Source of the DNA: Burkholderiales bacterium
Lineage (GTDB): Bacteria; Pseudomonadota; Gammaproteobacteria; Burkholderiales; SG8-41
Length of the DNA: 64,000 nucleotides
NCBI GenBank assembly: GCA_035259205.1
Contig: DATFWO010000099.1
Coordinates: 812-64,811, forward strand
Reading direction: 5' to 3'
Position 1 is the stretch's first letter; every line of letters starts with the position of its first letter. This document shows, one piece after another, positions 19,085-41,759 of the stretch. The notes beneath the pieces were generated by a model. That model saw only the letters and a list, made by a program, of their open reading frames with translations. It made no database searches and had not been told where the DNA came from. The translations under genes were made by a program, and so were the position numbers.

Positions 19085-19113
19085 CGGTATGCCGGACCCA
19101 TAGTCCTAGTCCC

Positions 19114-22100
19114 ATGCTGCGACTGCTCATCGAAACCTGCGTGCATCGCCGCGTGGCGGCGGTATTCGCCACGCTGGTAATCGCCGCTTTCGGGTTGCAT
19201 GCCTACTTCAATACTCCGATCGAAGCCTACCCGGACGTCACCAACACGCAGGTTACCGTTATCACCCAGCTCCCCGGCAATGCACCCGAGGAGATCGAGC
19301 GCCGCGTGACGGTGCCGCTGGAGCGCGAGCTGAACGGCACGCCGGGGATGACCTTGATGCGCAGCGAGAGCCTGTTCGGCCTGTCGCTCATCACCCTGAC
19401 GTTTGCGGACGACACCACCGGTTTTCTCGCCCGTACGATCGTATTGCAGCGGACTTCGGCCGCCGAATTGCCGCCGGGAGCCACCCCGGAGCTTGCACCG
19501 GAAGCGACCCCGCTGGGCGAGGTATACCAATTCCGCCTCGCGAGCGACCGCCACGACCTCTATCAGCTGCGCTCCGAGGCGCAATGGAACGTCGTACGCG
19601 TGCTGCGTCAGGCCCAGGGTGTGGCCGACTTCGTGCCTTTTGGCGGCTATTTGAAGGAGGTGCACATCGAAGCCGACCCGGCGCGCCTCTACGCCCTTGG
19701 ATTGACCCTCGCCGACCTCGAGCAGGCGATCGCACGGTCGAACCTGAACGTGGGCGGCGGCTTCTTGCGCCACGGCGACCAGGAGGTAACGGTGCGCGGC
19801 ATCGGCTACCTGGAATCGGCCGAAGACATCAAGCGCATCGTGCTCAAGGCCAAGGACGGCACCGCCGTGACCATAGGCGACGTCTCCCACGTCATGCAGT
19901 CCTACACGCCGCGCCGCGGCGCCGTCGGCGTCGGGCCGGAGAAGGAAGGTGTCGAGGGCTTCGTGTGGATGCGGCGCGGGCAGAATCCCTCGCGCGTGCT
20001 CGACGGCATACACGCCAAGGTGCGGGAATTGAACGAATCCATCCTGCCCAAAGGGATGAAGATCGAGACGTTCTACGATCGCAGCGACCTCGTCGGCCTG
20101 ACCTTGAAGACCGTCCACGAGAATCTCCTGACCGGGTTTGCCCTGGTCGTGGGCGTGGTATGGCTGTTCCTGCGCAGCGTGGTCGGCTCGGCAGTGGTTG
20201 CAGTGGTCATTCCGCTCGCGCTACTGGTGGCCTTCGTGGGCCTCTACGCGCTGGGCCTTCCCGCGAACCTGATATCGATGGGCGCCATCGATTTCGGCAT
20301 CCTCGTCGACGGGGCCGTGGTCCTGGTGGAAAACGTGATCCACGCTTTGCGCCACGAACATCCTGCGGACCGGCGCGAGGTGCTGCGGCTGGTGGTGCGC
20401 TCGGCGGTGGACGTGGGGCGCCCGACCTTGTACGCCATGCTGATCATCATTGCCGCGCTGGTACCGGTCTTCACCCTGCAATCGGTCGAAGGACGCATCT
20501 TCCGGCCCCTGGCGCTTACCTATTCCTTTGCCCTGCTTGGCGCACTGGTGTTTTCGCTGACCTTGGTGCCTGCTCTGTGCGGGGCGCTGTTCCGGCCGCG
20601 GCATGCGCGGCTCGAGGAGCCGGCGTGGATCGAGCGGCTGCGCACGACGTATCGGGGCCACCTGTCGCGGATACTCCACCGCCGGACGGTCGTGCTTGCT
20701 GCGGCGTTCGCCCTCCTCGCCCTGGCCGGGCTTACGATCACGCGTCTTGGCACCGAATTCCTGCCGGAGCTGGACGAAGGCGATATCCAGCTTTTCGTCG
20801 AGATGCCGCCGAGCATCTCGCTCGAGCGGGGTCAGGACATCCTGCTCGAAGTTCGCCGCCGGATACTCACATTTCCCGAAGTGAGCAAAACCTTGAGTGA
20901 GCAGGGCCGCCCGGAGGACGGCACCGATAACGAGGGCGTCAACATGAGCGAGACCTTCATCCGCCTGAAACCCAGGCACGACTGGCGGCCGGGCTACGAC
21001 AAGATTCGCCTGATACACGAGATGCGCGCGTCGTTGACGGAAATTCCGGGGATACGCTACAACTTCTCGCAGCCGATGAAGGACAACATCGAGGAGGCGG
21101 TGAGTGGCGTGCGCGGCAAGGTTGTGCTCAAGATATTCGGCCCGGACCTTGGGAAGATGCGAGCCACCCTGGAACGCGCCAGGGATGCCCTCAAGCCGGT
21201 TGCGGGGATCGTCGACCTCGACCTCTATCGCGACGCCTCGACGCCCCAGTTGCAGGTGCGCTTCGACCGGCAGGCGATCGCCCGCGCGGGCATCTCGATG
21301 GAAGACGCCCAGCGCACCCTGGAGACTGCGCTGGCCGGGCGTGTCACGACGACGATGTGGGAAGGCGAGCGACCGGTGCCGGTGCGGTTGTTGCTGCCGC
21401 TGTCGATCCGGGAAGATGCCGAGAAGATCGCCGCGATCACGATTTCGGGTGAAGCGGGCGCACGGGTCCCGCTGCGCGATCTTGCGACCATAGAATCCGC
21501 GACCGGCCTCGCGTCGATCAACCGGGAAGGCAACAGCCGCTACCTTGCCCTCAAGTTCAACGTCGATGGCCGCGACATGGGATCGGTCGTTAACGACGCC
21601 ATGGCCGCGGTCGGCAAGGAAGTACAGCCGCCCGAAGGTCACTATTTTGCCTGGGGCGGCGAGTTCGAAAACCAGCAACGAGCGATGGCCCGCCTCAAGA
21701 TCGTGGTCCCGCTCGCCGTGCTGACCGTCCTCGGCTTGCTCTATGCGGCAATGAATTCGGGGCGGAGCGCACTGGCCATCCTGTTGACCGTGCCGTTTGC
21801 GCTCACGGGCGGCGCCTTCGCGCTGCTGATCGCAGGAGTGCCCCTGTCGGTGAGCGCGGCGGTCGGTTTCATCGCCTTGCTCGGGCAGGTGTCGTTGATG
21901 GGGCTGCTGGTGCTGAGCGCCGCGGAAGGGCGGCGGCGCAACGGAGAGGATCTACTGCCTGCGCTCATGGTGGGTGCGGCCGAGCGTCTGCGGCCGGTGC
22001 TGATGGCCTCCATGCTGGCTCTGGTGGGGCTGCTGCCGATGGCGCTCTCCACCGGGGTAGGCAGCGAAACGCAGCGCCCTTTTGCGCTGGTCGTGGTCGG

Positions 22101-22203
22101 CGGAATGATCACGACGCTCGCGGTGGCGCTCTTCGTCCTGCCAGTCGTCTATAGCCTGATCACGCCCAAACGTCTGATCACGCCGGAGGAGGCCGACGCA
22201 TGA
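19114..22203 (+). CDS. CusA/CzcA family heavy-metal efflux RND transporter
   Basis: 1029 aa, 12-TM RND architecture with heavy-metal-efflux-type N-terminus (PIEAYPDVTNTQVTVITQ.PG). Cu/Ag versus Co/Zn/Cd specificity not decidable by eye. Confidence 0.9.
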   Translation: MLRLLIETCVHRRVAAVFATLVIAAFGLHAYFNTPIEAYPDVTNTQVTVITQLPGNAPEEIERRVTVPLERELNGTPGMTLMRSESLFGLSLITLTFADDTTGFLARTIVLQRTSAAELPPGATPELAPEATPLGEVYQFRLASDRHDLYQLRSEAQWNVVRVLRQAQGVADFVPFGGYLKEVHIEADPARLYALGLTLADLEQAIARSNLNVGGGFLRHGDQEVTVRGIGYLESAEDIKRIVLKAKDGTAVTIGDVSHVMQSYTPRRGAVGVGPEKEGVEGFVWMRRGQNPSRVLDGIHAKVRELNESILPKGMKIETFYDRSDLVGLTLKTVHENLLTGFALVVGVVWLFLRSVVGSAVVAVVIPLALLVAFVGLYALGLPANLISMGAIDFGILVDGAVVLVENVIHALRHEHPADRREVLRLVVRSAVDVGRPTLYAMLIIIAALVPVFTLQSVEGRIFRPLALTYSFALLGALVFSLTLVPALCGALFRPRHARLEEPAWIERLRTTYRGHLSRILHRRTVVLAAAFALLALAGLTITRLGTEFLPELDEGDIQLFVEMPPSISLERGQDILLEVRRRILTFPEVSKTLSEQGRPEDGTDNEGVNMSETFIRLKPRHDWRPGYDKIRLIHEMRASLTEIPGIRYNFSQPMKDNIEEAVSGVRGKVVLKIFGPDLGKMRATLERARDALKPVAGIVDLDLYRDASTPQLQVRFDRQAIARAGISMEDAQRTLETALAGRVTTTMWEGERPVPVRLLLPLSIREDAEKIAAITISGEAGARVPLRDLATIESATGLASINREGNSRYLALKFNVDGRDMGSVVNDAMAAVGKEVQPPEGHYFAWGGEFENQQRAMARLKIVVPLAVLTVLGLLYAAMNSGRSALAILLTVPFALTGGAFALLIAGVPLSVSAAVGFIALLGQVSLMGLLVLSAAEGRRRNGEDLLPALMVGAAERLRPVLMASMLALVGLLPMALSTGVGSETQRPFALVVVGGMITTLAVALFVLPVVYSLITPKRLITPEEADA

Positions 22204-23480
22204 AACCAGAACTTCGACGCTGGGCCCTGGTCGCGGCGGGGTGCGCTTTCTGGAGCACGTCGGCAGTGGCGCAGGAAGGCGCGCCGCCGGACGCCGTGGA
22301 TCTTTCCGCGGTCGTTCGCCTGGTGAAGGAAGTCAGCCCGCGGCTGGCCGCCGAGCGCCAGTCGGTCGCTGTCGCCGAAGCGGAACGGGTCGGCGCCGCG
22401 GCCCTGCCCAATCCCACTGTCGGCTACAACTATTTCCGCCCGAGCGGAGGCGCCGCGACGGTTTTCGAAGGCAGCCGACAGCAGCAGTTCGGAGTCGAGC
22501 TGCCGGTTCCACTCAGCGGTCAGCGCGCGGCCCGGATGGAAGCGGCGGAGCGCGGCGTCGATGCGGCGCGGGCACGCGTGCTCGCGGGCGGCAGTACGCT
22601 CGCTGCCGACGCAGCAGCCGGACACATCGACCTGCTGGCGGCGCAGGAGCAAATGGGCCTGCTCAGCGCGTCGGTGACGGAGCTCGAGCGTCTGCGCACC
22701 ATCATCGTCGGGCGCCAGGCGAGCGGCATGGCGAGCCGCTACGAAGTGACCCGTATCGAGGTCGAGCTCGGCGGCACGCGGGCGCGCCTCGGCGAGGCGC
22801 GCGCCAAGGTTGCCGACCGTGCGGGAACACTGGCTGCGCTGCTGGGTTTTCCGCGATGGCGGCCGCAGGCCCTGGGTTCGCTTGCGCCGCTCGAAATCGG
22901 GACTGAAGCTCCGGCAACGGCCCAGGAGCGAGCGTCTGGAAGTCCGGCGGCCGTCGCGGCGCTGCGCGAAGAAGAAGCAGCGCGCGCCGGCATAGAGGTC
23001 GCCAAGCGCGAACGCATCCCGACGCCCACGTTCAACGTCGGGCGGACCTGGACGAGCGACCCGTTCGGCGCAGCCAATTTCGTGGGCATGAGCGTCGAGA
23101 TTCCGATCCTGGACGCCCGCCGGGGCCCTCAGGCCAAGGCGGAGGCGCAAGCCATCCAGGCCAACTTGCGGCGCCAACTGGTCGAAGCCGAGACCGCGGC
23201 GAACCTGGACCGCCTGGCGCAGATCATTTCCCACCGGAAGACCTCACTCGAGCATTTCGACCGGGAAGCCACGCAGCGCATTGCCGCCCTCAAACAGATG
23301 GCGGAAGACGCTTATCAACTGGGACGCGGCTCCATACTCGAGCTGCTCGATGCGGTGCGCTCGCGCTACGAGCTGCAACAGGCGCGCGTGGAACTGGCTG
23401 CGGCCTTGCTCGAAGCACAGGTGCGCTACCTTGCCCTGAACGGAACGCTGGAACAGCGGCTGGGCAGCGCGCGGCGTTGA
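22200..23480 (+). CDS. TolC-family outer membrane efflux protein (CzcC-like)
   Basis: Signal peptide plus two OEP-type repeats. Start ATG overlaps the pump stop codon (ATGA). Confidence 0.85.
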   Translation: MKPELRRWALVAAGCAFWSTSAVAQEGAPPDAVDLSAVVRLVKEVSPRLAAERQSVAVAEAERVGAAALPNPTVGYNYFRPSGGAATVFEGSRQQQFGVELPVPLSGQRAARMEAAERGVDAARARVLAGGSTLAADAAAGHIDLLAAQEQMGLLSASVTELERLRTIIVGRQASGMASRYEVTRIEVELGGTRARLGEARAKVADRAGTLAALLGFPRWRPQALGSLAPLEIGTEAPATAQERASGSPAAVAALREEEAARAGIEVAKRERIPTPTFNVGRTWTSDPFGAANFVGMSVEIPILDARRGPQAKAEAQAIQANLRRQLVEAETAANLDRLAQIISHRKTSLEHFDREATQRIAALKQMAEDAYQLGRGSILELLDAVRSRYELQQARVELAAALLEAQVRYLALNGTLEQRLGSARR

Positions 23481-23493
23481 GTCGGAAGGCGCC

Positions 23494-24444
23494 TCAGGGT
23501 GCGACCGGCGTGGCGCGCGGGAGAACGATGCCCAGCTCGCCCGCGACCTTGCGCAGCAGGTCCGGCCGGTCGGAAACGATGCCGTCCACCCGCCATTCGA
23601 TCATGCGACGCATATCGGCCATGTCGTTCACTGTCCACACCAGGACCTTCAGTCCCAGGCGCCGCGCTTCGTCGATCAGGTCCCGCCGGATTTCCTCGTA
23701 GTAGCAGGACCAGACGGCGCCGCCTGCGGCCTCGATCATGCGCGGGATGGAACCGCCGAAGCGGCTGACGTGCAGAGGTTCGGTCCACGGTGAAGCCGTG
23801 CGGGCGGCGAGGATATTGTCCTGCCACGCTTGCTGGGCGGTGAGATAGACGGTCGGGATCTCGGGCGCCTCTTCCTGCACCACTTTCAACGGCTCCCAGT
23901 CGAACGAAAGGATGGCGGTGCGTGCTGCTACGTTGCCGTCACGCACGGCGGCGATTACCTTGCGCGCGAACGTTGCGGGATCGGCTGTTTGCTCGCGCCT
24001 GAATGGAGAAAGCTTCAACTCGAGGTTGAAGCGTACGGTGTCGTTGCCGGCTTTGGCGGTAAGCGCGAAAAGATCGGCGAGCCGTGGGATGCGGGTGCCG
24101 TCCACCGGCTGCTGCCCGGAAAACCGGCCGGCGTACTCCGAGCCCGGCTTGATCCGGCCGACGTCGTAGCGCAACACCTCGGCGTAGGAAAGCTGGAAGA
24201 TTGCCGGTCCCGCAGCGTCCAGCCATTTTCCGTCGGGGGTGCGGGTGATGTCGGGATTGAGCAGCGGATCGTGACTGATGACGACGACGCCATCGCGCGT
24301 GATCGCGCAGTCGAGCTCGAACGCCGAGACGCCGATGCCCAGCGCGTGCGCGAAACCCGGTAACGTATTCTCAGGGGAGAGGCCTCGCGCGCCGCGGTGG
24401 CCTTGCAGCTCGAGCGCCCACGGGGCTGCCTTCATCATCTCCAC
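23494..24444 (-). CDS. Glycerophosphodiester phosphodiesterase family protein
   Basis: GDPD signature HRGARGL.PENTL..F and ELD...T.DG. GTG start as in the ORF track; an internal ATG 6 nt downstream is also possible. Confidence 0.8.
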   Translation of the reverse strand: MEMMKAAPWALELQGHRGARGLSPENTLPGFAHALGIGVSAFELDCAITRDGVVVISHDPLLNPDITRTPDGKWLDAAGPAIFQLSYAEVLRYDVGRIKPGSEYAGRFSGQQPVDGTRIPRLADLFALTAKAGNDTVRFNLELKLSPFRREQTADPATFARKVIAAVRDGNVAARTAILSFDWEPLKVVQEEAPEIPTVYLTAQQAWQDNILAARTASPWTEPLHVSRFGGSIPRMIEAAGGAVWSCYYEEIRRDLIDEARRLGLKVLVWTVNDMADMRRMIEWRVDGIVSDRPDLLRKVAGELGIVLPRATPVAP

Positions 24445-24453
24445 CTACTGCGG

Positions 24454-24501
24454 GTCACGGCTCGGGTTACGAGTCGCGGATCACGGATCACCGATCTTCG
24501 G
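24454..24501. repeat. Tandem heptamer array (TCACGGA type)
   Basis: gtcacgg (24454) and gttacga (24466), then contiguous heptamers tcgcgga/tcacgga/tcaccga/tcttcgg at 24474-24501. Fills the spacer between two co-directional minus-strand genes. Confidence 0.7.
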
Positions 24502-24503
24502 TG

Positions 24504-25211
24504 TTATCCGCCCGCCGGCGCAAACCCCGTCATGCGCCAGCCGCTTTCGGTCTTGACGAAGCAGGCGCTGTGCTCGATAGCGCTGCGCACCTGTTCCTCG
24601 GGAACATAACCCTCACCGCTTTTTACTTGTACCTTCACCCAAAGTTGCTTCTCGGTCGGCACCTGGTTCGCGACCTCCCAGTCGGTGACGGCCACGATAT
24701 CGTATGAGAGCGTCTGCAGGGTTTTCGCATCGCTGCTGGGGGCCGCCTTCACCAGGACGTCGCGGGTAATGATGACCCCGTAGTCGTGTGGTATCAGGTC
24801 CTGCGGCCACTTGGCGAGCAGATATGGCGCACAGAGCTCGCGCGGCCCCTTGTCGCGCTTCAGGTAGGCGGACCCGAGAAACAGCGCGGCCTTCAGTTCC
24901 CGCCACAGCGGGCTGTCCGCCGCGGTCACATCCCATTGCTTCCTGAATTCCGGTATGCCTCGCTGGCGGTTCAGGCTCGAGCGTACGTTGCGGTCGAGTA
25001 TGCTCAACACGAACTTGAGATCGCGCTTTTCCACAGCGTTGAGCAATCGGTTCCGGAAGCTGATCCACGACGGGTCCGCGGCGGCCTCGTCTACCGGCTC
25101 GAGCTTGCGTTCCTGGCAGAAGCCCGCGGTCGACGCGATCATCAGCAGCGACAGCAGAGCGTGGACGATCTTCGGCGCTGCTCCGAATAGATGCATTGCT
25201 GGCTTCGACAT
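24504..25211 (-). CDS. Hypothetical exported protein
   Basis: Start trimmed to MSKPAMHLF... with a hydrophobic signal-like segment (LLSLLMIASTAGFC). No family recognised. Confidence 0.5.
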   Translation of the reverse strand: MSKPAMHLFGAAPKIVHALLSLLMIASTAGFCQERKLEPVDEAAADPSWISFRNRLLNAVEKRDLKFVLSILDRNVRSSLNRQRGIPEFRKQWDVTAADSPLWRELKAALFLGSAYLKRDKGPRELCAPYLLAKWPQDLIPHDYGVIITRDVLVKAAPSSDAKTLQTLSYDIVAVTDWEVANQVPTEKQLWVKVQVKSGEGYVPEEQVRSAIEHSACFVKTESGWRMTGFAPAGG

Positions 25212-25310
25212 GGCGCGGCGCTGGGGACTTTGCATAGTGCTAGAATCGACGCTGCATCCTACCACTACGCGGACGCCGGCAACAATTTCCGGCGCCACCG
25301 CATTCCGCTC

Positions 25311-25532
25311 ATGGCGCGCATCGAAATCAAGTCAGAGATAACCGGCACGGTATGGAAGGTGCATTCCAAACCCGGCGACAAGGTGGAATCGGGGGATACG
25401 CTCGCCGTGATCGAGTCGATGAAGATGGAAATTCCCGTAATCACGGAGGACGCCGGCACTGTCAGAGAGATTCTGGTCAAGGAAAAGGATGCGGTAGCGG
25501 AAGGCCAGGTCGTCGCCGTGCTCGACGGTTGA
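25311..25532 (+). CDS. Small biotin carboxyl carrier / biotinyl-domain protein (73 aa)
   Basis: Complete biotinyl domain with the canonical attachment motif IESMKMEIPV. Start trimmed to MARIEIKSEITG. Confidence 0.85.
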   Translation: MARIEIKSEITGTVWKVHSKPGDKVESGDTLAVIESMKMEIPVITEDAGTVREILVKEKDAVAEGQVVAVLDG

Positions 25533-25573
25533 CGGCCAAAGGGGAAGGAAGGCCCCGCGCAGCTACGATCTAC

Positions 25574-25609
25574 CAGTCATGCTCTATCAGTCACGCATCA
25601 CCAGCCACG
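25574..25609. repeat. 14-bp-period array, core CAGTCACG (3 units)
   Basis: cagtcatg at 25574, cagtcacg at 25588, cagccacg at 25602. Exact 14 bp spacing. Spacer between the biotin carrier and carboxyltransferase genes. Confidence 0.75.
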
Positions 25610-25622
25610 CTTCATCAAAGAC

Positions 25623-27158
25623 ATGCCATTCGAGACGCTGATAGCTGAGTACGAAAAGCGCCGGGCCAAAGCGCTCGGGATGGGCGGACCGGAAAAGCTC
25701 GCCAAGAGAAAGAAAGCGGGCGTGCTCAACGCGCGCGAGCGGGTCGAGCGCCTGTTTGATCGAGGCACGTTTCTCGAGTCGGGGCTGTTCGGCGCCTCCG
25801 GGGTGTACCCGGACGAAGCCGACGAGACGCTGACGGACGGCAAGATCGCGGGCTACGGCAAGATCGGCGGGCGCGACGTGGCGGCAGTGGTGAACGACTT
25901 CACGGTGAAGGGCGCTTCCACCAGCGCGACCAACAGCAAGAAGGTCGCCCACATGAAGCGCACCGCGACCGAGCGCGGCATACCGCTCGTGATCATCGGG
26001 GAATCCACTGGCGCGCGGCTGCCCGACGCCATGGGCTCGCGCGGCATGGGACAGTTGCTCGGCAACGACCCCACGCAATTTCGTCGCATGCGCGAGACAC
26101 CTCTTGCAACTGCCGTGCTGGGTCCGTCATTCGGCTCTTCGGCGTGGCTCGCCTGCCTCGCCGATTTCGCGGTCATGCACAAGGGCGCCACGATGGCGGT
26201 CTCGAGCCCGCGGCTGATCGAGATGGCGCTGAACGAGAAGGTGAATTTCGAGGAGCTGGGCGGGTGGCGGCTGCACGCGGAGACGACCGGCCTGGTGGAC
26301 CAGGTGGTGGACAAGGAAGAGGAGGTGTTCGAGGCCATCCGGCGCTTCTTGTCCTACATGCCGGGCCACAACCAGGAAGCGCCGCCGGATGCGTCGGTGC
26401 CCGAGGGCTCGGGCGCGGAGATGGCCGCCGTCTTCGGCGTGCTGCCGGAGAGCCGCACGCAGGTCTACGACATGAAGCGCATCATCCGCGCGGTCGTGGA
26501 CCGGGACACGTTCTTCGAGCTGAAGCCCCGCTTCGGCAAGAGCGCGGTGACGGCGCTCGCCCGGCTGGGCGGCAAGAGCGTGGGGGTCGTCGCCAACAAC
26601 CCGCTGCATCGGGGCGGCGCGCTCGATGCCGATGCGTGCCGCAAGATAACGGACTTTCTCGTCCTGTGCGATTCCTTCAACGTGCCGATCGTCCTGCTCG
26701 TGGACACGCCGGGCTTCCAAATCGGCACCGAGGCCGAAAAGAGCGGCGCGCCCGGAAAGATCATGAACTTCATGAACGCGATGACGTTGCTCACAGTGCC
26801 GCGGCTTTCCGTCATCATCCGCAAGAGCTACGGGCGCGCCTACGTCTGCATGGGCGGCGGCCGGCATTCGGACGACGTGGCGGCGTGGCCCACGGCGGAG
26901 GTAAGCTTCATGAGTCCGGATTTCGCGACGCGCATCGTGCACGGCGTAAAGCCGGGCGATCCCGCCTTCCAGGAGAAACTCGCGGAGATCGAGCAGGAAA
27001 GCGATGTCTGGGGACTGGCCTCGGTGTTCGCGGCGCAGGCAGTGATCAAACCCGAAGAGACCCGCGACTATCTCATACGCATGCTTGAAGTTTACCGGCT
27101 GCGAATGACGCGCGGCGTCGGGCAGCATCTGATGCGCTGCTGGCCTACCTCTTACTGA
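25623..27158 (+). CDS. Acyl-CoA carboxylase carboxyltransferase subunit (PccB/AccD5-like)
   Basis: 511 aa carboxyl-transferase protein (GVLNARERVERL, NDFTVKGAS, LVDTPGF, RKSYGRAY). Roughly half the positions match the copy at 2739-4274 by eye. Confidence 0.9.
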   Translation: MPFETLIAEYEKRRAKALGMGGPEKLAKRKKAGVLNARERVERLFDRGTFLESGLFGASGVYPDEADETLTDGKIAGYGKIGGRDVAAVVNDFTVKGASTSATNSKKVAHMKRTATERGIPLVIIGESTGARLPDAMGSRGMGQLLGNDPTQFRRMRETPLATAVLGPSFGSSAWLACLADFAVMHKGATMAVSSPRLIEMALNEKVNFEELGGWRLHAETTGLVDQVVDKEEEVFEAIRRFLSYMPGHNQEAPPDASVPEGSGAEMAAVFGVLPESRTQVYDMKRIIRAVVDRDTFFELKPRFGKSAVTALARLGGKSVGVVANNPLHRGGALDADACRKITDFLVLCDSFNVPIVLLVDTPGFQIGTEAEKSGAPGKIMNFMNAMTLLTVPRLSVIIRKSYGRAYVCMGGGRHSDDVAAWPTAEVSFMSPDFATRIVHGVKPGDPAFQEKLAEIEQESDVWGLASVFAAQAVIKPEETRDYLIRMLEVYRLRMTRGVGQHLMRCWPTSY

Positions 27159-27163
27159 AGAGC

Positions 27164-27295
27164 GTGATGAGTAATGGGTGATGAGTGATGGGCAAAATCG
27201 TAAGTTGAACTGTTGGCTTACTACCAGAAGAAACAATCTAGCGCGACCAAGCCCTCGCTAGAGGGCAGTTCTACTCATTACCCATCACCCATCAC
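27164..27295. repeat. Mirror heptamer arrays (GTGATGR x4 / complement x3) flanking a central hairpin
   Basis: gtgatga gtaatgg gtgatga gtgatgg at 27164-27191. Complementary ctcatta cccatca cccatca c at 27273-27295. Perfect hairpin gccctc-gcta-gagggc at 27251-27266. Confidence 0.8.
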
Positions 27296-27296
27296 G

Positions 27297-28646
27297 ATGT
27301 TCAATAAGATAGTCGTTGCGAATCGCGGTGCTGTCGCTGCTCGCGTAATCCGTGCATTAAACGAGATGGGGCTACGCTCCGTCGCGGTCTATTCCGAGGC
27401 GGATGCCGGGGCGCCCTACCTGGAGCTGGCCGGCGAGTCCCATGCGATCGGCCCGGGACCTGCGCGCGAGAGCTATCTCAACCAAGATCGATTGCTTGAA
27501 GTGCTGCGCGAGTCACACGCCGACGCGCTTCATCCGGGGTATGGCTTTCTATCCGAGAATGCCGGGTTTGCGCGGCGCGTCAACCAGAGCGGCGCGCGCT
27601 TTGTCGGTCCGTCGCCGCGGTGGATAGAAGCGATGGGCCACAAGACCCAGGCCCGGGAGCTCGCGGCGCGCTACGGCATGCCCATGTCGAAGGGCTCGGG
27701 GATATTGCCGGAAGAGAGGGAGGCGATCGTGGCGGCAGCGCGCGAGATCGGGTTTCCGGTGCTGGTGAAACCGGCAGGCGGAGGGGGTGGCATCGGGATG
27801 CTGCCGGCGGCGGACGAATCCGCGCTGCTCGGCGCGGTCGAGCGCTCTCGATCCATGGCTGCCCGCGGTTTCGGCACGTCCGAAGTCTTTCTCGAGCGGT
27901 TGATGGAGCGTCCGCGCCACGTCGAGTTCCAGGTCCTCGGCGACATGCACGGCGCCATGGTGCACCTCTACGAACGGGATTGTTCCACACAGCGCCGCAA
28001 TCAGAAGGTAATCGAAGAAGCTCCCGCACCTGGAATCGCGCGCCCGCGCGCCGTCGCGCAGGCGGAGCAAGTGGCCGGCATCGTGCGCGAAATGGGCTAC
28101 GACAATATCGGCACGGTGGAAATGCTGATGGAGACCGAAGGCGCGTTCAGCTTCCTCGAAATGAACACCCGGCTGCAGGTAGAGCACGGCGTGACCGAGG
28201 AAATCACGGGCGTAGACCTGGTGAAAGCCCAGATCCGCGCCGCCGCCGGTGAGAAGCTGGCGGATATTCTGCCCGCTGGGATAGAAGTGCGCGGTCACGC
28301 GATCGAGGCCCGCGTTTACGCGGAGGACCCGAAGAATTTCTTTCCCTCGCCGGGGCGACTCAGGGTTTTCCGCCCGCCGCAAGGTGGGGGCATACGGGTC
28401 GAAACCGGCTATGCGGAAGGCCGCGAGGTGACGCCGCACTACGATCCGATGCTCGCCAAGGTGATCGCTCACGCCGAAACGCGGGAGCAGGCGGCGGCGA
28501 GATTGGCTGAGGCGCTGGAAGCGTTTGCGATCGAAGGGCCGAAGGTCAACGTGCCCGCGGTGCTCGCCGTGCTGCGCTCGGAGCCGTTTTGCGCCGGGCG
28601 CGTGCACACCGGCCTGATTCCTGAAGTACTGGGGAGAAAATCCTAG
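27297..28646 (+). CDS. Biotin carboxylase (ATP-grasp, AccC-like)
   Basis: Start trimmed to MFNKIVVANRGAVAARVIRA. GYGFLSEN, KPAGGGGGIGM, EMNTRLQVEH and HA.EARVYAEDP motifs of biotin carboxylases. Confidence 0.9.
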   Translation: MFNKIVVANRGAVAARVIRALNEMGLRSVAVYSEADAGAPYLELAGESHAIGPGPARESYLNQDRLLEVLRESHADALHPGYGFLSENAGFARRVNQSGARFVGPSPRWIEAMGHKTQARELAARYGMPMSKGSGILPEEREAIVAAAREIGFPVLVKPAGGGGGIGMLPAADESALLGAVERSRSMAARGFGTSEVFLERLMERPRHVEFQVLGDMHGAMVHLYERDCSTQRRNQKVIEEAPAPGIARPRAVAQAEQVAGIVREMGYDNIGTVEMLMETEGAFSFLEMNTRLQVEHGVTEEITGVDLVKAQIRAAAGEKLADILPAGIEVRGHAIEARVYAEDPKNFFPSPGRLRVFRPPQGGGIRVETGYAEGREVTPHYDPMLAKVIAHAETREQAAARLAEALEAFAIEGPKVNVPAVLAVLRSEPFCAGRVHTGLIPEVLGRKS

Positions 28647-28737
28647 CCACGGAAACACACGGAAGGGCACGGAATTTTCCAGAAGAAAGCCGCTGACGTT
28701 TGGTGCAACCCTCCGCGTGATTCCGTGGTTCCGTGGC
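28646..28737. repeat. CACGGAA / TTCCGTG inverted array element, copy 1
   Basis: cacggaa at 28648, 28658 and 28668. Inverted ttccgtg at 28721 and 28729. The left arm is near-identical to 59815-59848. Confidence 0.8.
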
Positions 28738-28759
28738 TGAATTGACTTCGTGATACGCA

Positions 28760-29464
28760 ATGGACGGGCGTAAACTGATTTTGGAGGCCAGGAAGCAGGG
28801 ACGGTCGGCGCTCGATGAGCTAGCGGGCAAGCAATTGCTTGCGAGTTACGGCATTGCTGTGCCGAAATCCCTCGTAGTCCGCGATGCAGCGCAGGCGGCT
28901 TCGACGTGCGCGACCCTCAAGCCGCCGCTGGTGCTCAAGGTGATGTCGCCCGACATCCTCCACAAGAGCGACGTGGGCGGCGTCAGAGTCGGTCTGAACA
29001 GCGGCGAAGCGATCGTCGAGGCGATCAGGGAGATGATGGCCACGCCGCAGATCGGCAACGCGCGCATCGACGGCTTTCTGGTCGAGGAGATGGCGCCGGC
29101 GGGGCAGGAGATCGTCATCGGCGGCGTGCGCGATCCGCAATTCGGCCCGCTCGTCATGCTGGGGCTGGGCGGGCTGTTCGTCGAAGTTCTGGCGGATGTT
29201 GCATTCCGCATTTGCCCGATCACCGGGCTCGATGCCGAAGAGATGCTTGATGAGCTGAAGGGCGCTGCGCTGCTCGCCGGCGCGCGCGGGCGCAAGCCGG
29301 CGTCGCGTGCCGCCGTTTTGGATTCGCTGCTCAAGGTGGGTGGTGCGGGGGGCCTGCTGATGGGCTACGCGGACGACATCAAGGAGGCGGACATCAATCC
29401 GCTCGTCGTTTCGGAAACCGGCGCGATGGCGGTCGATGCGCGCTTTGTTTTAACCAAAAGGTGA
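28760..29464 (+). CDS. ADP-forming acyl-CoA synthetase, beta (ATP-grasp) subunit
   Basis: 234 aa ATP-grasp_5-type domain (KV.SPDILHKSDVGGV, ADINPL), as in NDP-forming acetyl-CoA synthetase beta subunits. Confidence 0.8.
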   Translation: MDGRKLILEARKQGRSALDELAGKQLLASYGIAVPKSLVVRDAAQAASTCATLKPPLVLKVMSPDILHKSDVGGVRVGLNSGEAIVEAIREMMATPQIGNARIDGFLVEEMAPAGQEIVIGGVRDPQFGPLVMLGLGGLFVEVLADVAFRICPITGLDAEEMLDELKGAALLAGARGRKPASRAAVLDSLLKVGGAGGLLMGYADDIKEADINPLVVSETGAMAVDARFVLTKR

Positions 29465-29579
29465 CGAGGTACGGGTGACGAAGATGCGGGTGACGAGATA
29501 CAGGTGACGAGATACGGCTGGCCCTGGTTGTAGGTCACCCTTATTCGTCACCCTTATTCGTCACCTTTATTCGGCACCT
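29461..29579. repeat. Mirror arrays: 4 x GTGACGA (14-15 bp period) and 4 x GTCACC (13 bp period)
   Basis: gtgacga at 29461, 29475, 29490 and 29504. gtcaccc/gtcaccc/gtcacct/ggcacct at 29534, 29547, 29560 and 29573. The first unit contains the upstream TGA stop. Confidence 0.85.
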
Positions 29580-29584
29580 CTTTG

Positions 29585-31069
29585 ATGAGCGAGAACGTAA
29601 TCGAGCGCTTCCGGCCGCTGTTCGAGCCGAAGACAGTGGCGGTCCTCGGCGCGTCGAGCCGCGGCGGGACGGTTTCCAACATCTTCATCCGCCGCATCCG
29701 TGAGTTCGGCTTCGAAGGAGCAATCTATCCGATACACCCGTCGGCCGAGAGCATAGACGGACTGCCGGCCTATCGCAGTCTCGCCGGCACGCCCGACGTC
29801 GTCGACTATGCGTTCATCGCGATTCCCGGTGGACAGATACCGTCCCTGCTCACGGAGGCGCGGGGACGCGTGCGATTCGCGCAGGTGATTTCCAGCGGAT
29901 TCGGCGAGGTCGACGAGGGCAGGCAGCTGCAGGACCAGTTGGTCGCGGCAGCGCGCGAGGGAGGCATGCGGCTGATCGGCCCCAACTGTCTGGGCCTCTA
30001 TTCGCATCGCGGCAAGGTCACCTTTACCGAGACCTGGCCGCAGGAGCTGGGCACGATAGGGGTCATTTCACAAAGCGGCGGGCTTGGCACGGACATCGTG
30101 CGCCGGGGAATCATCCGGGGCCTCAAGTACTCCGCCGTGGTGACTGTGGGCAATTGCGCTGACGTCGGGCCGAGCGAGCTGCTCGAGTACTATCTGGCCG
30201 ACGCGCAGACCCGCGTCGTCGGAATGTATATCGAATCGGCCGGTGACGGTCGGCGGCTGTTCGAGATGCTGCGCGCAGCGCAAGCGAAAAAACCGGTCGT
30301 GATCCTGAAGGGAGGACGCACGCGACTGGGCAAGATGGCCGCGGCCTCGCACACCGGCTCGCTTGCTGGCGATGATCGCGCGTGGGTCGCTCTGTCCCGG
30401 CAAACAGGGTGTGTCCTGGTGGAGACGCTGGATCAGTTCCTGGATGCGCTGCTCGCGTTCCAGACGCTCAAGCCGCGGCCGCAGCATCCCACGCGGGAGA
30501 CCGTGTTGTTCGGCAACGGCGGCGGGGCGAGCGTGCTGGCAACCGATACCTTTGCCCGCCTGCAGCTGGAGGTCGCGCCGTTCGCCGAACAGGCGCTGGA
30601 GGCGCTCGCTGCGCTCAAGCTGCCGCCCGGCAGCAGCATATCGAACCCGGTGGATACTCCGGTCAGCACGCTCCGCCACGAGGATGGGGCGGTCGCGGAA
30701 AAAATCCTCGAGGCGATCTACGGGGTTGGCCGCCCGCAGGCGCTGGTCATGCACCTCAATCTGTCCGCGTTCGTGGGCCGCACCCAGAGCGACGTCCTGG
30801 GCAACCTCATGGAGATCGCGCTGCGAGTGCAGGCGCGCTATCCCGGGCAGGCGCACTTCATGCTGGTGCTGCGCGCGGACGGCGAGCCGGCGCTGGAAGA
30901 GCGCAAGCGGCAGTTCCGCGCCCGGGCGACGGCGCTCGGGATACCCGTGTACGACGAGCTCGAGCACGCGGCCCGCGCGCTCGCGGCGCTGGCCTTTCAC
31001 GAGCGGTTCCTGCATTCGAGAGCATTGACCGTGACTCGTGACTCGACCCCGATTACGGAAGCTTGTTAA
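29585..31069 (+). CDS. ADP-forming acyl-CoA synthetase, alpha (CoA-binding/ligase) subunit
   Basis: CoA-binding N-terminus (VAVLGASSRGG), GPNCLG, and the phospho-histidine loop AASHTGSLAGDD. ATG at 29585 preferred over the TTG at 29582 in the ORF track. Confidence 0.85.
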   Translation: MSENVIERFRPLFEPKTVAVLGASSRGGTVSNIFIRRIREFGFEGAIYPIHPSAESIDGLPAYRSLAGTPDVVDYAFIAIPGGQIPSLLTEARGRVRFAQVISSGFGEVDEGRQLQDQLVAAAREGGMRLIGPNCLGLYSHRGKVTFTETWPQELGTIGVISQSGGLGTDIVRRGIIRGLKYSAVVTVGNCADVGPSELLEYYLADAQTRVVGMYIESAGDGRRLFEMLRAAQAKKPVVILKGGRTRLGKMAAASHTGSLAGDDRAWVALSRQTGCVLVETLDQFLDALLAFQTLKPRPQHPTRETVLFGNGGGASVLATDTFARLQLEVAPFAEQALEALAALKLPPGSSISNPVDTPVSTLRHEDGAVAEKILEAIYGVGRPQALVMHLNLSAFVGRTQSDVLGNLMEIALRVQARYPGQAHFMLVLRADGEPALEERKRQFRARATALGIPVYDELEHAARALAALAFHERFLHSRALTVTRDSTPITEAC

Positions 31070-31141
31070 GCTGCCGTTAAATCACGCCTCATCAGTCGCG
31101 CCTCGCCAGTCACGAACCATCAGTCACGCATCAGCAGTTAC
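31031..31141. repeat. GTGACTC x2 followed by 5-unit 14-bp-period CAGTCACG array
   Basis: gtgactc at 31031 and 31038 (inside the 3' end of the upstream CDS). aaatcacg, cagtcgcg, cagtcacg, cagtcacg and cagttac at 31079, 31093, 31107, 31121 and 31135. Confidence 0.8.
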
Positions 31142-31147
31142 TTTCCC

Positions 31148-32356
31148 ATGTACCAGTCCGATTTCAGAGCAGTTCACTATCCCTATCGCCTTTACAGCGG
31201 CAAGAACGCCCTCGACAAGCTGCCCGATGAAGTCGGCCGGCTCAAAGCGCGCCGCGCGTACATCGTTTGCGGCCGCACCGTATCGCGCAAGACACCGCTC
31301 ATTTCGCACATGCGGGAACTGCTGGGCACGGCTTGCGCTGGCGTGTTCGACGAAGTCGACAAGGAAACCACCCGTTCTTCCATGGTGCGCGCGACCGAGG
31401 CGGCGCGTGCGGCGCAGGCGGACCTGATCATAGGGGTGGGAGCAGGCAGCGTGATACAGGGCGCGCGTATCGTTGCGATCCTGCTCGCGGAAAAGAAACC
31501 GATCGAGGAGCTGATTACGAAGTATCCGGAGCAGGGTCCCGCCGTGAGCGCGCGGTTGATGGAGCGGAAGCTCCCCATCATCAATGTACTCACCGCGCCG
31601 ACAACGGCGCAGAATCGGGCGGGTTCGAGAATGAAAGACGACGAAACCGCCCGCGGCATGGAGTTCTTCGACCCGAAGACGCGGCCCGCGGCGATTTTCT
31701 GGGATGAGGACGCGCTGCTCACCGCGCCGGTATCGCTCATACGCTCGACGGCGAGCGCGGTTTATTGCCGCGCAGTGACGAATCTGGGCGGTGTTGCGAT
31801 CAATCCGCTGGTGGAGGGCGACCGGTTGCAGGCCTATCGGCTCACTTCCAGGGCGCTCGCGCGTATCGCCGCTCTCGCCGACGCCGGCCCGCGCTACGAC
31901 CTGTGCGCAGCGACCTTGCTTCAGAACCGGGAGAACGACGACGGCGGCGCCCAGTTCGAGCGTCTGTGGGCGGTGCGCGTGGCGTATGCGCTGTCAACTG
32001 CGCTCATCAGCATTTGCGGGCACGTCGGCCAGGGCGAGGCCTACAGTTCGTTGATGGGCACGGTAACGCGGCAGCTGGGGGCGCGGGATCCGGAGGCAAT
32101 GGCGCGGATCGCCCATGCGCTGGAAATCGCGAAGGAGGGAGAGCCCCCGGCGCAAATGCCGGCACGCGTTGCCGATAGCTTCGACGCGACTTTTCGCTCG
32201 ATCGGCATGCCGATTCGCCTTTCGCAGCTGGATATCGATCGCGCGGTTTTTCCGCGCCTGGTCGAGCACTCGCTCACCAACTTCAACGCGGACCCCAAGC
32301 GCGAGTTCCGCCGTGAGGGGGAGATGCTGACCGAGGTTCTCGAAGCGGCCTGGTAA
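31148..32356 (+). CDS. Iron-containing alcohol dehydrogenase family protein (maleylacetate-reductase-like)
   Basis: 402 aa Fe-ADH fold with IIGVGAGSVIQGAR in place of the GGGS loop. Last gene of the carboxylase operon. Confidence 0.7.
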   Translation: MYQSDFRAVHYPYRLYSGKNALDKLPDEVGRLKARRAYIVCGRTVSRKTPLISHMRELLGTACAGVFDEVDKETTRSSMVRATEAARAAQADLIIGVGAGSVIQGARIVAILLAEKKPIEELITKYPEQGPAVSARLMERKLPIINVLTAPTTAQNRAGSRMKDDETARGMEFFDPKTRPAAIFWDEDALLTAPVSLIRSTASAVYCRAVTNLGGVAINPLVEGDRLQAYRLTSRALARIAALADAGPRYDLCAATLLQNRENDDGGAQFERLWAVRVAYALSTALISICGHVGQGEAYSSLMGTVTRQLGARDPEAMARIAHALEIAKEGEPPAQMPARVADSFDATFRSIGMPIRLSQLDIDRAVFPRLVEHSLTNFNADPKREFRREGEMLTEVLEAAW

Positions 32357-32639
32357 CTCGGCTCGGCATCTACTTACGGTTCCCGTGAAAGTCGTCAAGG
32401 CGATCGGGTTGAAGATCCAGTAATCCTGACGAACGTCGAACGTGCGTGGTCCGGCACATGCTCAACGATTGGACATCAAATGAGGAATATCCCTCTACTT
32501 CCAGCCATCCTGTAGCGATGTCCGCAGGATGACTGTTTACATTCTGTTACCAAATCAAGGTACACCACGGCGAGCGCCGGGGCGTTGTGGTGGGCTGGGT
32601 GGGAGTTCCCACAAACCTGACCAGCCTGAGGAGAACCAG

Positions 32640-32975
32640 ATGAAGCTCAAATCGACGATGATCGCACTGATGATTGCCGCGCTGCCCGGTGTAGCGCTAG
32701 CCCAATCCACCGGCACCAAATCCACGCCGCGCATCGACCAGCGTCAAGTCGACCAGGAAAAACGCATCGAGCAGGGCGCGAAGTCCGGCCAGTTGACCGA
32801 CAAGGAAGCGGGGCGGCTCGAAAAAGGGCAGGCGCACGTGCAGAAGATGGAGGACAAGGCGGTTGCCGACGGCAAGGTGACGAAGAAGGAAAGAAAGAAG
32901 ATCGAGCACGCGCAGGACCAGCAGAGCAAGAAGATCCACCGCGAGAAGCACGACAAGCAGACGGCTGCGAAGTGA
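32640..32975 (+). CDS. Small lysine-rich periplasmic protein (111 aa)
   Basis: ATG 6 nt after gaggag. Sec signal MKLKSTMIALMIAALPGVALA. Two imperfect internal repeats G.[LV]T.KE...[LI]E..Q. Confidence 0.6.
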   Translation: MKLKSTMIALMIAALPGVALAQSTGTKSTPRIDQRQVDQEKRIEQGAKSGQLTDKEAGRLEKGQAHVQKMEDKAVADGKVTKKERKKIEHAQDQQSKKIHREKHDKQTAAK

Positions 32976-32984
32976 TGCTTCGCT

Positions 32985-33015
32985 GTAACTGCCGCGCCGG
33001 TCGCGCGGCAGTTAC
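32985..33015. terminator. Perfect 13-bp GC-rich palindromic hairpin between convergent genes (candidate bidirectional terminator)
   Basis: gtaactgccgcgc (32985-32997), loop cggtc, gcgcggcagttac (33003-33015). Lies between the stop of 32640-32975 (+) and includes the TAA stop (33012-33014, minus strand) of the sorB-like gene. Only a short T run follows. Confidence 0.55.
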
Positions 33016-33659
33016 TTGCAGTTGGTCATGCAGCGTACCGCCCTGGTATCGGGCCGGTCATCGAGGATGAAGCCGTCGCGATTGGGCATCTGCACCTTGG
33101 GCAGGCTCGCAGCATCCATCACGGCCTCGCCCGGTATGAGGCCGTTGAGGTTGAGCAGATACGCCGAGACCGCGTACACCTCGTTTGCGGTAAGGCTCTG
33201 CGGGCGATCCATCGGCATTGCGCGCCGGATGTAGTCGAAGAGTATCGGCGCGTAGGGGTACATGCTCCCCGGCGTCAAGACGCGGGCGTTGGTTGTGAAG
33301 GACCCGATGCCCCCCACCATGGATCCGTAGACCGGACCGCCTTTCCCTTCGGCGCCGTGGCAGGAAGCGCATTTCGCGTCGTACACCTTGCGGCCTTCCG
33401 CAACCGATCCGCGGCCCGCCGGCAGGCCCATGCCGTCGGAAGTGCGAATGTCGATGTTCCAGGCCGCAAGATCGCTTTCGCTTACCGCCTGACCGAAGCG
33501 TGGCTTGTCGGGCAGTGGCTGCACCGGGTGCGCCCCGGTCGCTCCCAGTGGAATACCGTCGGAAGATTTGGGCGCCACATCGCCCACGTTGGCGCAACCC
33601 CAGATTGCGGCTGCTGCGGCTAGCGCTGCCGCGGCAAGACTAAGCTTGGCCGATCGCAT
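33012..33659 (-). CDS. sorB: Cytochrome c subunit of sulfite dehydrogenase (SorB-like)
   Basis: Signal peptide, single CASCHG haem-c motif, distal Met region. Overlaps the 3' end of the SorA-like gene by 20 nt. Confidence 0.7.
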   Translation of the reverse strand: MRSAKLSLAAAALAAAAAIWGCANVGDVAPKSSDGIPLGATGAHPVQPLPDKPRFGQAVSESDLAAWNIDIRTSDGMGLPAGRGSVAEGRKVYDAKCASCHGAEGKGGPVYGSMVGGIGSFTTNARVLTPGSMYPYAPILFDYIRRAMPMDRPQSLTANEVYAVSAYLLNLNGLIPGEAVMDAASLPKVQMPNRDGFILDDRPDTRAVRCMTNCK

Positions 33660-34899
33660 TGCGCACCTCGCCGTTCGTGTTGACGGACCATGGCTGGATA
33701 CCGTTGTGATGCTGTACGAAGCCGCTGATCGCGCGCGCCTTCTGGATGTCCTGCACGCTCGGCTGCACGTAACCCGTGCTGTCGACCGCGCGGCTCATCA
33801 GCACGGCGGGAGCGCCATCCCAGTTCCAGCCGATCTTGAAGCGCGTAAGAGACTTGTCCATGACCGGCTCCTCCAGCATCGCCTCGCGCCAGTTCCTGCC
33901 GCCGTCGAAGGACACGTCGACCGCGCGTATCCTGCCTGCGCCCGACCATGCCAGACCTCTTACCTCCTGGAACCCCGGGCCCTTCAACTGCTGCCCGCCG
34001 GAGGGCGTGGTGATGACGGACTTGCATTCCATCACCATGCTGAACTTGCGCCATTTGCCGTCCGGCATCGGATCCGTGTAACGCGCGGTCTCGCTGCGGA
34101 AATACCACGGCTGATCACCGACTTTGATGCGCCGGAGCCATTTCACGCTGACGTTGCCTTCCCAGCCGGGAATCACCGCCCGTACCGGGTAGCCGTTCTC
34201 CGGGCGCAGGGCCTCGCCGTTCATGGCGTAGGCGATGATCGTGTCGTCCAGGACCTTCTCGATCGGAATCGAGCGCGTGTGCGCGGAAGCGTCGGCGCCC
34301 TCGAACAGCGCCCATTTCCCGCGCGGATCTATGCCCGCCTCCTCCAGCAGCGTCGAGGCCGGGACGCCGGTCCACAGCACGCCCGATAGCAACCCGTGTG
34401 TCTGCTGTACGGTGGTCGAAGCAGGCTTCAGCCAGTCGGTCAGCCCGTTGCCCGAGCACTCGTGGAAATGAAAGCGCGATACCGACGGGTAGCGCACGAG
34501 ATCATCCATGGTGAAGACAAGCGGTTGCTTCACCATGCCGTGCACCGCCAGCCGATGCGTCTTCGGGTCGATATCCGGCGTGCCTGCGTGGTGGCGCTCG
34601 AAAACCAGTCCGTTCGGCGTGATGATCCCCGGCTGATGCTGCAGGGGCGTCATGCTCCAGTCGGACCAGTTCTGCCGGTTCTTGAGAACGTCGGTACGGC
34701 GCCGCGCGACGTACTCCTCGTGCTTCGACGGCATGCCGTAGGCGGCAGGTTCGATCGGTCGCCCGGTTTCCCGGGCGCTCGACGGGACCGGCAGAGGCGC
34801 GGCGCGCGCCGCGCTGGTTGCGGCGAGCGCGCTTCCGGTCAGGGCTGCTGTTCTACGGAGAAAGTTCCTGCGATCGCGAGTATCGGGCGGTTGCGCCAT
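33640..34899 (-). CDS. sorA: Sulfite dehydrogenase molybdopterin subunit (SorA-like, sulfite oxidase family)
   Basis: Twin-arginine signal (RDRRNFLRRTAALTG), oxidoreductase molybdopterin-binding domain with an ECSGN-type Mo-Cys motif, and a Mo-co dimerisation domain. Confidence 0.8.
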   Translation of the reverse strand: MAQPPDTRDRRNFLRRTAALTGSALAATSAARAAPLPVPSSARETGRPIEPAAYGMPSKHEEYVARRRTDVLKNRQNWSDWSMTPLQHQPGIITPNGLVFERHHAGTPDIDPKTHRLAVHGMVKQPLVFTMDDLVRYPSVSRFHFHECSGNGLTDWLKPASTTVQQTHGLLSGVLWTGVPASTLLEEAGIDPRGKWALFEGADASAHTRSIPIEKVLDDTIIAYAMNGEALRPENGYPVRAVIPGWEGNVSVKWLRRIKVGDQPWYFRSETARYTDPMPDGKWRKFSMVMECKSVITTPSGGQQLKGPGFQEVRGLAWSGAGRIRAVDVSFDGGRNWREAMLEEPVMDKSLTRFKIGWNWDGAPAVLMSRAVDSTGYVQPSVQDIQKARAISGFVQHHNGIQPWSVNTNGEVRNAIGQA

Positions 34900-38715: not shown

Positions 38716-38776
38716 AGCCCGCAGGGCGGGAACACACGACACGCCCCGAGGCGCTCGTTTCTTACACGGAGTGGGA

Positions 38777-41743: not shown

Positions 41744-41759
41744 GATGTTGTCTCCCCAC

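Follow-up and report, generated by a model that had tools for sequence, protein, structure and literature searches.

A conserved operon of uncultured Burkholderiales couples a divergent biotin-dependent acyl-CoA carboxylase to an ADP-forming acyl-CoA ligase

The DNA analysed here (the window) comprises 64,000 nucleotides of contig DATFWO010000099.1 (positions 812 to 64,811 of the forward strand; GenBank assembly GCA_035259205.1) from the metagenome-assembled genome (MAG) of an uncultured soil Burkholderiales bacterium. All coordinates below refer to the window. Six co-directional open reading frames (ORFs) of the + strand span 25311-32356; their third-position GC is high, and no other frame competes with them. 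They encode a stand-alone biotin carboxyl carrier protein (BCCP), a carboxyltransferase (CT), a biotin carboxylase (BC), the two subunits of an ADP-forming acyl-CoA synthetase (ACS-beta and ACS-alpha) and a protein with the fold of iron-dependent alcohol dehydrogenases (Fe-ADH). The original prediction had described six genes at this place, and all of them proved intact by their Pfam and NCBIfam matches and full length when set against orthologues.

The BCCP gene (25311-25532) encodes only 73 amino acids, which match PF00364 (E 1e-16) and pass the cut-off of NF004547 (86.5 bits; cut-off 75). Lys38, in the motif SMKME, is the biotinyl-lysine, and the protein is 84-90% identical to the copies of relatives. 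It is followed by the gene of a PccB-type CT of 511 amino acids (25623-27158), whose two-lobed domain is full length (PF01039, 328 bits, E 1.5e-97; positions 3-478 of the 493 of the model). The ORF of the BC opens at TTG 27213; orthologues begin at ATG, and from its own ATG the protein has 449 amino acids (27297-28646). The BC contains all three expected domains (PF00289, PF02786 and PF02785) and intact catalytic motifs (HVEFQV, RRNQKVIEEAP and EMNTRLQVEH), and its NF006367 score of 507 bits lies under the cut-off of 597. ACS-beta (28760-29464), the ATP-grasp subunit, matches PF13549 (232 bits, E 8e-69) and has the second conserved histidine, His68 in LHKSDVGGV, to which we presumptively assign the role it has in structures of ACD-type synthetases. 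ACS-alpha (29582-31069), the CoA-binding and ligase subunit, combines PF13380 and PF13607 and carries the phosphohistidine loop SHTGS, in which His257 is invariant among orthologues. Judged by these domains, by the MKM motif and by the SHTGS loop, the operon encodes a complete three-component biotin-dependent carboxylase (BC, BCCP and PccB-type CT) joined to a two-subunit NDP-forming ligase, as had been proposed.

Independent sequence data agree with this gene order. A Logan contig from the probable source sample covers 24000-28467 with 0 differences, and another from an independent soil sample crosses the BCCP-CT junction (25406-25916), also with 0 differences; the assembly of the BCCP-CT region is therefore supported. 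A scan for promoters and terminators gave no signal exceeding the shuffled expectation. Most operon spacers carry tandem arrays with periods of 7, 13 or 14 bases (25533-25622, 27159-27296, 28647-28759, 29460-29581 and 31026-31147), such as GTGATGA in 4 copies, or GGTGACGAGATACG in 4 copies followed by 3.5 copies of GTCACCCTTATTC. Whereas the spacers of the window are swollen by such arrays, the same gene junctions in relatives measure a few bases or overlap. The source assembly (414 contigs, 93.6% complete) amounts to 6.55 Mb, compared with 2-5.9 Mb, mostly 3-4 Mb, for relatives of the genus; its contamination estimate is 4.9%, and the bin may be a mixture of strains or of genomes.

Biotin-dependent acyl-CoA carboxylases are of few kinds, namely acetyl-CoA carboxylase (ACC), propionyl-CoA carboxylase (PCC), methylcrotonyl-CoA carboxylase (MCC), GCC and the long-chain enzymes. 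On sequence criteria, the CT is distinct from ACC, PCC and MCC. It scored 229-288 bits against solved PccB-type chains (288 for the best match in the Protein Data Bank), whereas the PCC-beta of the same genome scored 574-735 bits against solved chains of the PccB/AccD5/12S type. The score with TIGR01117 was 322 bits against a cut-off of 999, and no NCBIfam equivalog cut-off was met. Six CT-domain genes were found in the genome: those of the CT, a paralogue (CT2), PCC-beta, MCC-beta, AccA and AccD. PCC-beta (on contig C223; 735 bits to the Ruegeria PCC, 3n6r) and MCC-beta (on contig C92; 835 bits to the Pseudomonas aeruginosa MCC, 3u9r) are canonical. Since these enzymes and AccA/AccD are encoded elsewhere in the genome, the carboxylase of the operon represents an extra, specialised one.

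The phylogeny of the CT points the same way. A maximum-likelihood tree was built from 109 sequences, comprising the CT types of the lineage, the PCC and MCC of the genome and 100 full-length representatives of 50% clusters. CT and CT2 grouped in a clade of nine sequences (SH-aLRT 99), nested within larger supported clades, and this clade lies across a supported split (SH-aLRT 96-99) from the canonical PCC-beta clade of 32 sequences. A third paralogue known from relatives, CT3, fell into yet another clade. The original prediction had allowed that the CT might belong to a characterised clade such as PCC and that its neighbours might not be conserved in synteny; instead, the CT lies outside the canonical PCC clade and, as described below, the synteny is conserved. 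The nearest representatives are 38-46% identical to the CT and come from Dehalococcoidia and other MAGs. Either their contigs were short or their neighbourhoods disagreed, the gene standing by itself, beside fused CoA-transferases or beside a fused BC-BCCP.

Three motifs that are near-universal in PccB-type proteins are altered in the CT, and the alterations are kept across four families: DSGGARIQEG has become GESTGARLPD, GPCAGGAVY has become GPSFGSSAW (with Ser172 and Ser173) and FGGAYDVM has become YGRAYVCM (with Arg405 and Val408). The glycine pairs of the oxyanion holes (G182-G183 and G419-A420 in PccB) are G171-S172 and R405-A406 in the CT. These changes imply that Ser172 and Arg405 stand in for glycines of both oxyanion holes, where the backbone amides could still serve. 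A rule deriving specificity from PccB Asp422 was considered for the CT and dropped, as true PCCs also have Val or Cys at this position.

Could the operon simply encode a redundant propionyl- or acetyl-CoA carboxylase which, with an acetate/propionate ligase, takes part in ordinary short-chain fatty-acid assimilation? The closest solved structures are indeed PccB-type CTs, the names given to the CT in databases are ACC or MmdA, and Val408 stands where PccB has Asp422, a feature shared with some genuine PCCs and ACCs. However, the presence of canonical PCC-beta, MCC-beta and AccA/AccD genes elsewhere, the much lower scores of the CT against the same PccB-type structures, its separate clade, the three altered motifs and the lack of an equivalog match make this explanation improbable in our view.

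In its components and domain families the operon resembles the multi-subunit carboxylases, such as the archaeal ACC/PCC (with a CT like that of Sulfolobus tokodaii, 1x0u), the Streptomyces coelicolor enzyme with PccB 1xnw and the mycobacterial AccA3/AccD systems. The last of these have a carrier of 71 amino acids, and the BCCP of the window passes the PRK05889-type carrier model; as in mycobacteria, the two or three CT paralogues of relatives share one BC and one BCCP. In contrast to these systems, with which it shares only about 35-38% identity, the CT belongs to another clade, has Ser172/Ser173 and Arg405 at the oxyanion-hole glycines and GESTGAR in place of DSGGAR, and its carboxylase is hard-wired to an ADP-forming ligase.

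The paralogue CT2 (2739-4274, + strand) is 52% identical to the CT and its sister in the tree; each of the two reaches only about 325 bits with PF01039. Its gene directly follows the transporter genes tctC-tctB-tctA, unaccompanied by a dedicated BC or BCCP gene, and CT2 probably shares the BC and BCCP of the operon. The distance between CT2 and the BCCP gene is 6-8 kb in relatives, and in the window about 21 kb of other genes lie between them. This stretch is absent from the relatives compared; part of it is a complete RND efflux operon (17894-23480) coding for a membrane fusion protein, an AcrB-type pump and an outer-membrane factor. An M20 amidohydrolase gene directly follows CT2 in relatives; in the window a VWA-domain gene separates the two.

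The ligase, too, is distant from its characterised homologues. The best NCBIfam matches of ACS-beta are 3-hydroxypropionate (3HP) and 4-hydroxybutyrate (4HB) CoA ligases, far under the cut-offs, and the closest structures to ACS-alpha are the alpha subunits of archaeal ACDs (2csu and 4xyl) and the thaumarchaeal 4HB- and 3HP-CoA ligases (8wzu and 9y43). With these archaeal enzymes the ligase shares the domain set and both phosphohistidines, and the beta-then-alpha order of its genes agrees with the layout of the 3HP ligase. It differs from them in its scores (183-315 bits against equivalog cut-offs of 567-1300), in its bacterial host and in being co-operonic with a carboxylase. Among 301 genomes sampled from the order, 19 yielded an orthologue of the ligase, and these represent four of 61 families; a sample of 400 other genomes from across the phylum yielded none.

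Conservation of the gene order was assessed at two levels. A tblastn search gave 13 loci in genomes of the same genus or order, in which a BCCP gene precedes the series CT, BC, ACS-beta, ACS-alpha and Fe-ADH, followed by the gene of a FlK-type thioesterase, with identities of 63-90%. A census was then taken of 80 further loci, all from MAGs of uncultured Betaproteobacteria/Burkholderiales of soil, groundwater and lakes, and counts were made only over loci with enough flanking sequence. The ACS-beta gene adjoins that of ACS-alpha in 61 of 66 loci, with BC upstream in 48 of 54 and CT upstream in 40 of 44; the Fe-ADH gene is the next one downstream less regularly (44/68), as is the thioesterase gene (27/38). 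The linkage of the operon genes is far beyond chance.

The consensus locus begins upstream with divergent genes for GDPD, a hypothetical protein (hyp264), an enoyl-CoA hydratase and a GntR-FCD regulator. The operon itself consists of BCCP, CT3, an optional insert, CT, BC, an optional FadB-like gene, ACS-beta, ACS-alpha and Fe-ADH; most relatives possess CT3, the second CT of the operon. Optional genes then follow, coding for TctC, a glutaredoxin and a dehydrogenase resembling tartronate-semialdehyde reductase or HIBADH, with an optional small exported protein before the FlK-type thioesterase. What the insert between CT3 and CT encodes varies: either a cytoplasmic molybdenum enzyme from the sulfite-oxidase family together with the beta and alpha subunits of an electron transfer flavoprotein (ETF), or TctC with a family III CoA-transferase. 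The variant genes (TctC, CoA-transferase, hydratases, dehydrogenase and often GntR-FCD) are the make-up of a catabolic or assimilatory organic-acid operon.

The association of ligase and carboxylase extends to another Burkholderiales family, where it is held at 57-63% identity. The core found in genome G039 comprises a CT (63% identical), a BCCP, a BC and a ligase whose subunits are fused in the order beta-alpha into 726 amino acids (locus L018, 7559-9739), and it adjoins a gene of the enolase superfamily (MR/MLE). Close homologues of the CT and of the Fe-ADH-fold protein all come from uncultured Burkholderiales. The fixed partnership of this CT clade with an ADP-forming ligase of archaeal type is common in metagenomes of soil, groundwater and lakes, where thousands of near-identical proteins occur, and no cultured or characterised member was present among the homologues found. 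The literature searched contained nothing relevant on a carboxylase linked to an ADP- or NDP-forming synthetase. We conclude that the operon is genuine, conserved and restricted to its lineage, that it couples an acyl-CoA carboxylase to an ACD-type ligase and that it matches no characterised pathway, the last point having already been made in the original prediction.

Compared with the consensus, the copy in the window is trimmed. BCCP is directly followed by CT, the Mo enzyme and ETF are missing, and no orthologue of CT3 or of the Mo enzyme was detected anywhere in the assembly. The thioesterase gene, which directly follows the Fe-ADH gene and ends the operon in relatives, is located at 38771-39163 (+ strand), displaced by an insert of 6.4 kb. 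This thioesterase, the paralogous CT2 and the CT3 of most relatives had been overlooked when the locus was first described. One might therefore regard the window copy as a decaying remnant of a fuller operon whose pathway no longer works: CT3, the GntR regulator and the divergent hydratase are absent, the thioesterase is displaced, and all spacers are swollen by repeat arrays. Yet the six ORFs are full length and retain their catalytic residues, the trimmed BCCP-CT layout recurs in two other MAGs (loci L047 and L107) and, with 0 differences, in the independent soil sample, and CT2 could serve as the second CT. We consider decay quite improbable.

The displaced gene encodes a FlK-type hot-dog thioesterase (PF22636, 108 bits), in which Thr34, Glu42, His68 and Arg112 align with the residues that serve FlK in catalysis, the triad Thr42, Glu50 and His76 together with Arg120. 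The two proteins belong to the same PF22636 family and the four aligned residues are kept. However, the match to FlK itself (3kv7) amounts to only 65 bits, the region of the Phe36 gate is unaligned, and the gene belongs with a carboxylase operon instead of a fluorometabolite-resistance system.

The insert preceding the thioesterase gene contains genes for a small exported protein, SorAB, a polysaccharide deacetylase, two alpha/beta-hydrolases and TctC. The exported protein (hyp148; 32529-32975, + strand) has no Pfam match and belongs to family f13, which occurs between the Fe-ADH gene and the thioesterase gene in 19 related loci. SorAB (33012-34899, - strand) consists of a SorA-type molybdenum sulfite dehydrogenase with a twin-arginine signal and a cytochrome c subunit. 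The two tandem alpha/beta-hydrolase paralogues (35947-37595, - strand) are encoded upstream, in the direction of the - strand, of the polysaccharide deacetylase gene; the pair is also found in the same insert of the closest relative, L039. Beyond the thioesterase gene (41222-43016, - strand), a DUF35/ChsH2-type OB-fold protein adjoins a thiolase-like (Thiolase_C_1) protein, a pair typical of retro-aldolase or SCP-x-type thiolase systems.

The Mo enzyme of relatives (L014, 6599-7843; also L016, L017, L055, L062, L078 and others) has neither a signal peptide nor the substrate arginine motif, and its gene lies directly upstream of those of ETF-beta and ETF-alpha, an unusual pairing. In G039 a sulfatase gene is paired with a ComA (phosphosulfolactate synthase family) gene near the core. 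The Mo enzyme with ETF, the SorAB of the window and the sulfatase-ComA pair prompted the idea of a link to sulfite or organosulfonates, which was dropped: in the Mo enzyme of relatives the Arg of the R-x-H substrate motif is gone and CAGNRR has given way to CAGND (read by eye), the scores of this enzyme are far under the SorA and SoxC cut-offs, and the sulfatase-ComA pair of G039 is a separate transcription unit.

The last gene of the operon (31148-32356) encodes the Fe-ADH-fold protein (PF00465, 98 bits). Its AlphaFold model has a pLDDT of 78, and Foldseek gave TM-scores of 0.79-0.81 to Fe-ADHs. It shares the fold and the glycine-rich dinucleotide loop, here GVGAGS, with group III iron ADHs (FucO, DhaT and the ADH domains of AdhE and of BdhE, 9ldl). 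In contrast to these enzymes, all four metal ligands (Asp-His-His-His) are replaced, as read from two independent sequence alignments, to 9ldl and 5yvr: Asp by Ala204 and the three His by Arg208, Tyr280 and Gln295, the last three residues being invariant in 14 orthologues. By its sequence, the protein therefore appears to be no standard iron ADH but a member of the fold that has been conserved without a metal site. The Fe-ADH part of its earlier label, iron-ADH or maleylacetate-reductase-like, is thus retained for the fold. The likeness to maleylacetate reductase is not, since the matches are marginal (E about 1e-3, confined to the N-terminal 100 residues; TM-scores of 0.70-0.71, below those of ordinary ADHs). 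A search of the ESM Atlas returned only generic Fe-ADH clusters. It had also been suggested that this protein reduces the product of the carboxylase, which the loss of all four ligands and the absence of the gene from about one-third of related loci speak against.

We consider it somewhat probable that the operon constitutes a substrate-specific acyl-CoA carboxylase module and works in the direction of carboxylation, and infer the following order of steps. The two-subunit ACD-type ligase would convert a small organic acid into its CoA thioester, with ATP going to ADP, through phospho-His257 of the alpha subunit and His68 of the beta subunit. The BC would then carboxylate the biotin of the 73-residue BCCP at the expense of a second ATP, and the CT would transfer the carboxyl group to the alpha-carbon of the acyl-CoA, yielding a substituted malonyl-CoA. 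FlK prefers substrates with an acidified alpha-proton. An alpha-carboxylated acyl-CoA is also alpha-acidic, and for this reason the thioesterase, in the full operon, probably hydrolyses the product of the carboxylase or proof-reads it. The metal-less Fe-ADH-fold protein would be an accessory one, which may be NAD(P)-dependent or may bind a carboxylate through its invariant Arg208. As for the acid from which the CT substrate derives, we would guess at a short C2-C4 acid, polar or substituted at the alpha position, and not at propionate itself.

Several points weigh against a carboxylating module of this kind. The forward mechanism is read from sequence, and the reversible ligase could work in the ATP-forming direction. 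Ser and Arg at the oxyanion-hole glycines could give the CT a chemistry other than simple alpha-carboxylation, and the Fe-ADH-fold protein appears unable to act as a standard dehydrogenase. None of ten accessory proteins compared with NCBIfam reached an equivalog cut-off. The window copy is devoid of the second CT, GntR regulator and hydratase present in most relatives, and in this trimmed form, with its thioesterase displaced, it may work differently or less well.

ACDs are reversible and in archaea work in the acid-forming, ATP-conserving direction. The enzyme of the operon might likewise release the acid and conserve ATP at the end of a catabolic route, the carboxylated CoA ester being made otherwise, for instance by a CoA-transferase. 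Some relatives carry genes for a family III CoA-transferase and TctC within the operon, and the presence of a thioesterase shows that release of a free acid belongs to the scheme. We nonetheless regard this direction as unlikely: the CoA-transferase occurs in only about 7 of the 40 loci with enough upstream sequence and is missing from the window cluster, whereas the ligase occurs in essentially all, and the neighbouring thioesterase would waste the energy of the thioester.

Still less can be said for running the whole system backwards, as had also been suggested, so that decarboxylation of a carboxy-acyl-CoA conserves energy and the ACD then performs substrate-level phosphorylation. The half-reaction of the CT and the ACD are both reversible in principle. 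However, the operon always includes the gene of an ATP-dependent BC, whose catalytic motifs are intact, and PF03977, the membrane beta subunit of decarboxylases, was not found in the 93.6%-complete genome, whereas two control genomes matched. In both respects, the operon's BC and the lack of a PF03977 match, the system departs from the Na+-translocating biotin decarboxylases (Mmd, Gcd and Oad). Moreover, we know of no ATP-forming biotin decarboxylase. Reverse operation is thus highly improbable.

If the operon does carboxylate, its logic is that of the synthetic tartronyl-CoA (TaCo) module, in which a glycolyl-CoA synthetase feeds a glycolyl-CoA carboxylase engineered from the PCC of M. extorquens, carrying L100S or L100N (PMC10729300). 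In both systems an acid-CoA ligase precedes a PccB-type carboxylase, and the CT has Thr100 at the position of L100S/N and Val408 at that of Asp407; the numbering was checked by aligning the PCC-beta of our genome to 6ybp. In the engineered enzyme Asp407 has reportedly been changed to Ile. The residue of the CT at the His143 site is ambiguous (Met142 with HMMER, Asn148 with MAFFT), and no claim is drawn from it. In contrast to TaCo, the operon encodes no tartronyl-CoA reductase, and nothing marks glycolate as the substrate. The literature searched did not yield a natural glycolyl-CoA carboxylase.

That the operon is a natural carboxylase for hydroxy- or other alpha-polar short acyl-CoAs, converting for example glycolyl-CoA to tartronyl-CoA, we think very unlikely. 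A few weak hints point to it: Thr100 and Val408 at two positions engineered in the glycolyl-CoA carboxylase, the extra Ser and Arg lining both oxyanion holes, a thioesterase of a type that recognises alpha-electronegative acyl-CoAs, the dehydrogenase resembling tartronate-semialdehyde reductase in some variants, and a GntR-FCD regulator of the type known for hydroxy-acid catabolism. If true, the operon would be the natural counterpart of the ‘new-to-nature’ TaCo module and would offer abundant uncultured Burkholderiales of soil and freshwater a CO2-fixing route for the assimilation of a common C2-C3 acid.

The significance of the operon would be modest if its enzyme proved to be a slightly modified PCC. 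To our knowledge, however, every new substrate class of biotin-dependent acyl-CoA carboxylases has led to a new pathway. The metal-less Fe-ADH-fold protein represents a second, smaller puzzle. The operon could also be a naturally evolved carboxylation module for use in synthetic CO2 fixation, and once its substrate is named, a conserved gene set of an uncultured yet abundant lineage would have an assigned function.

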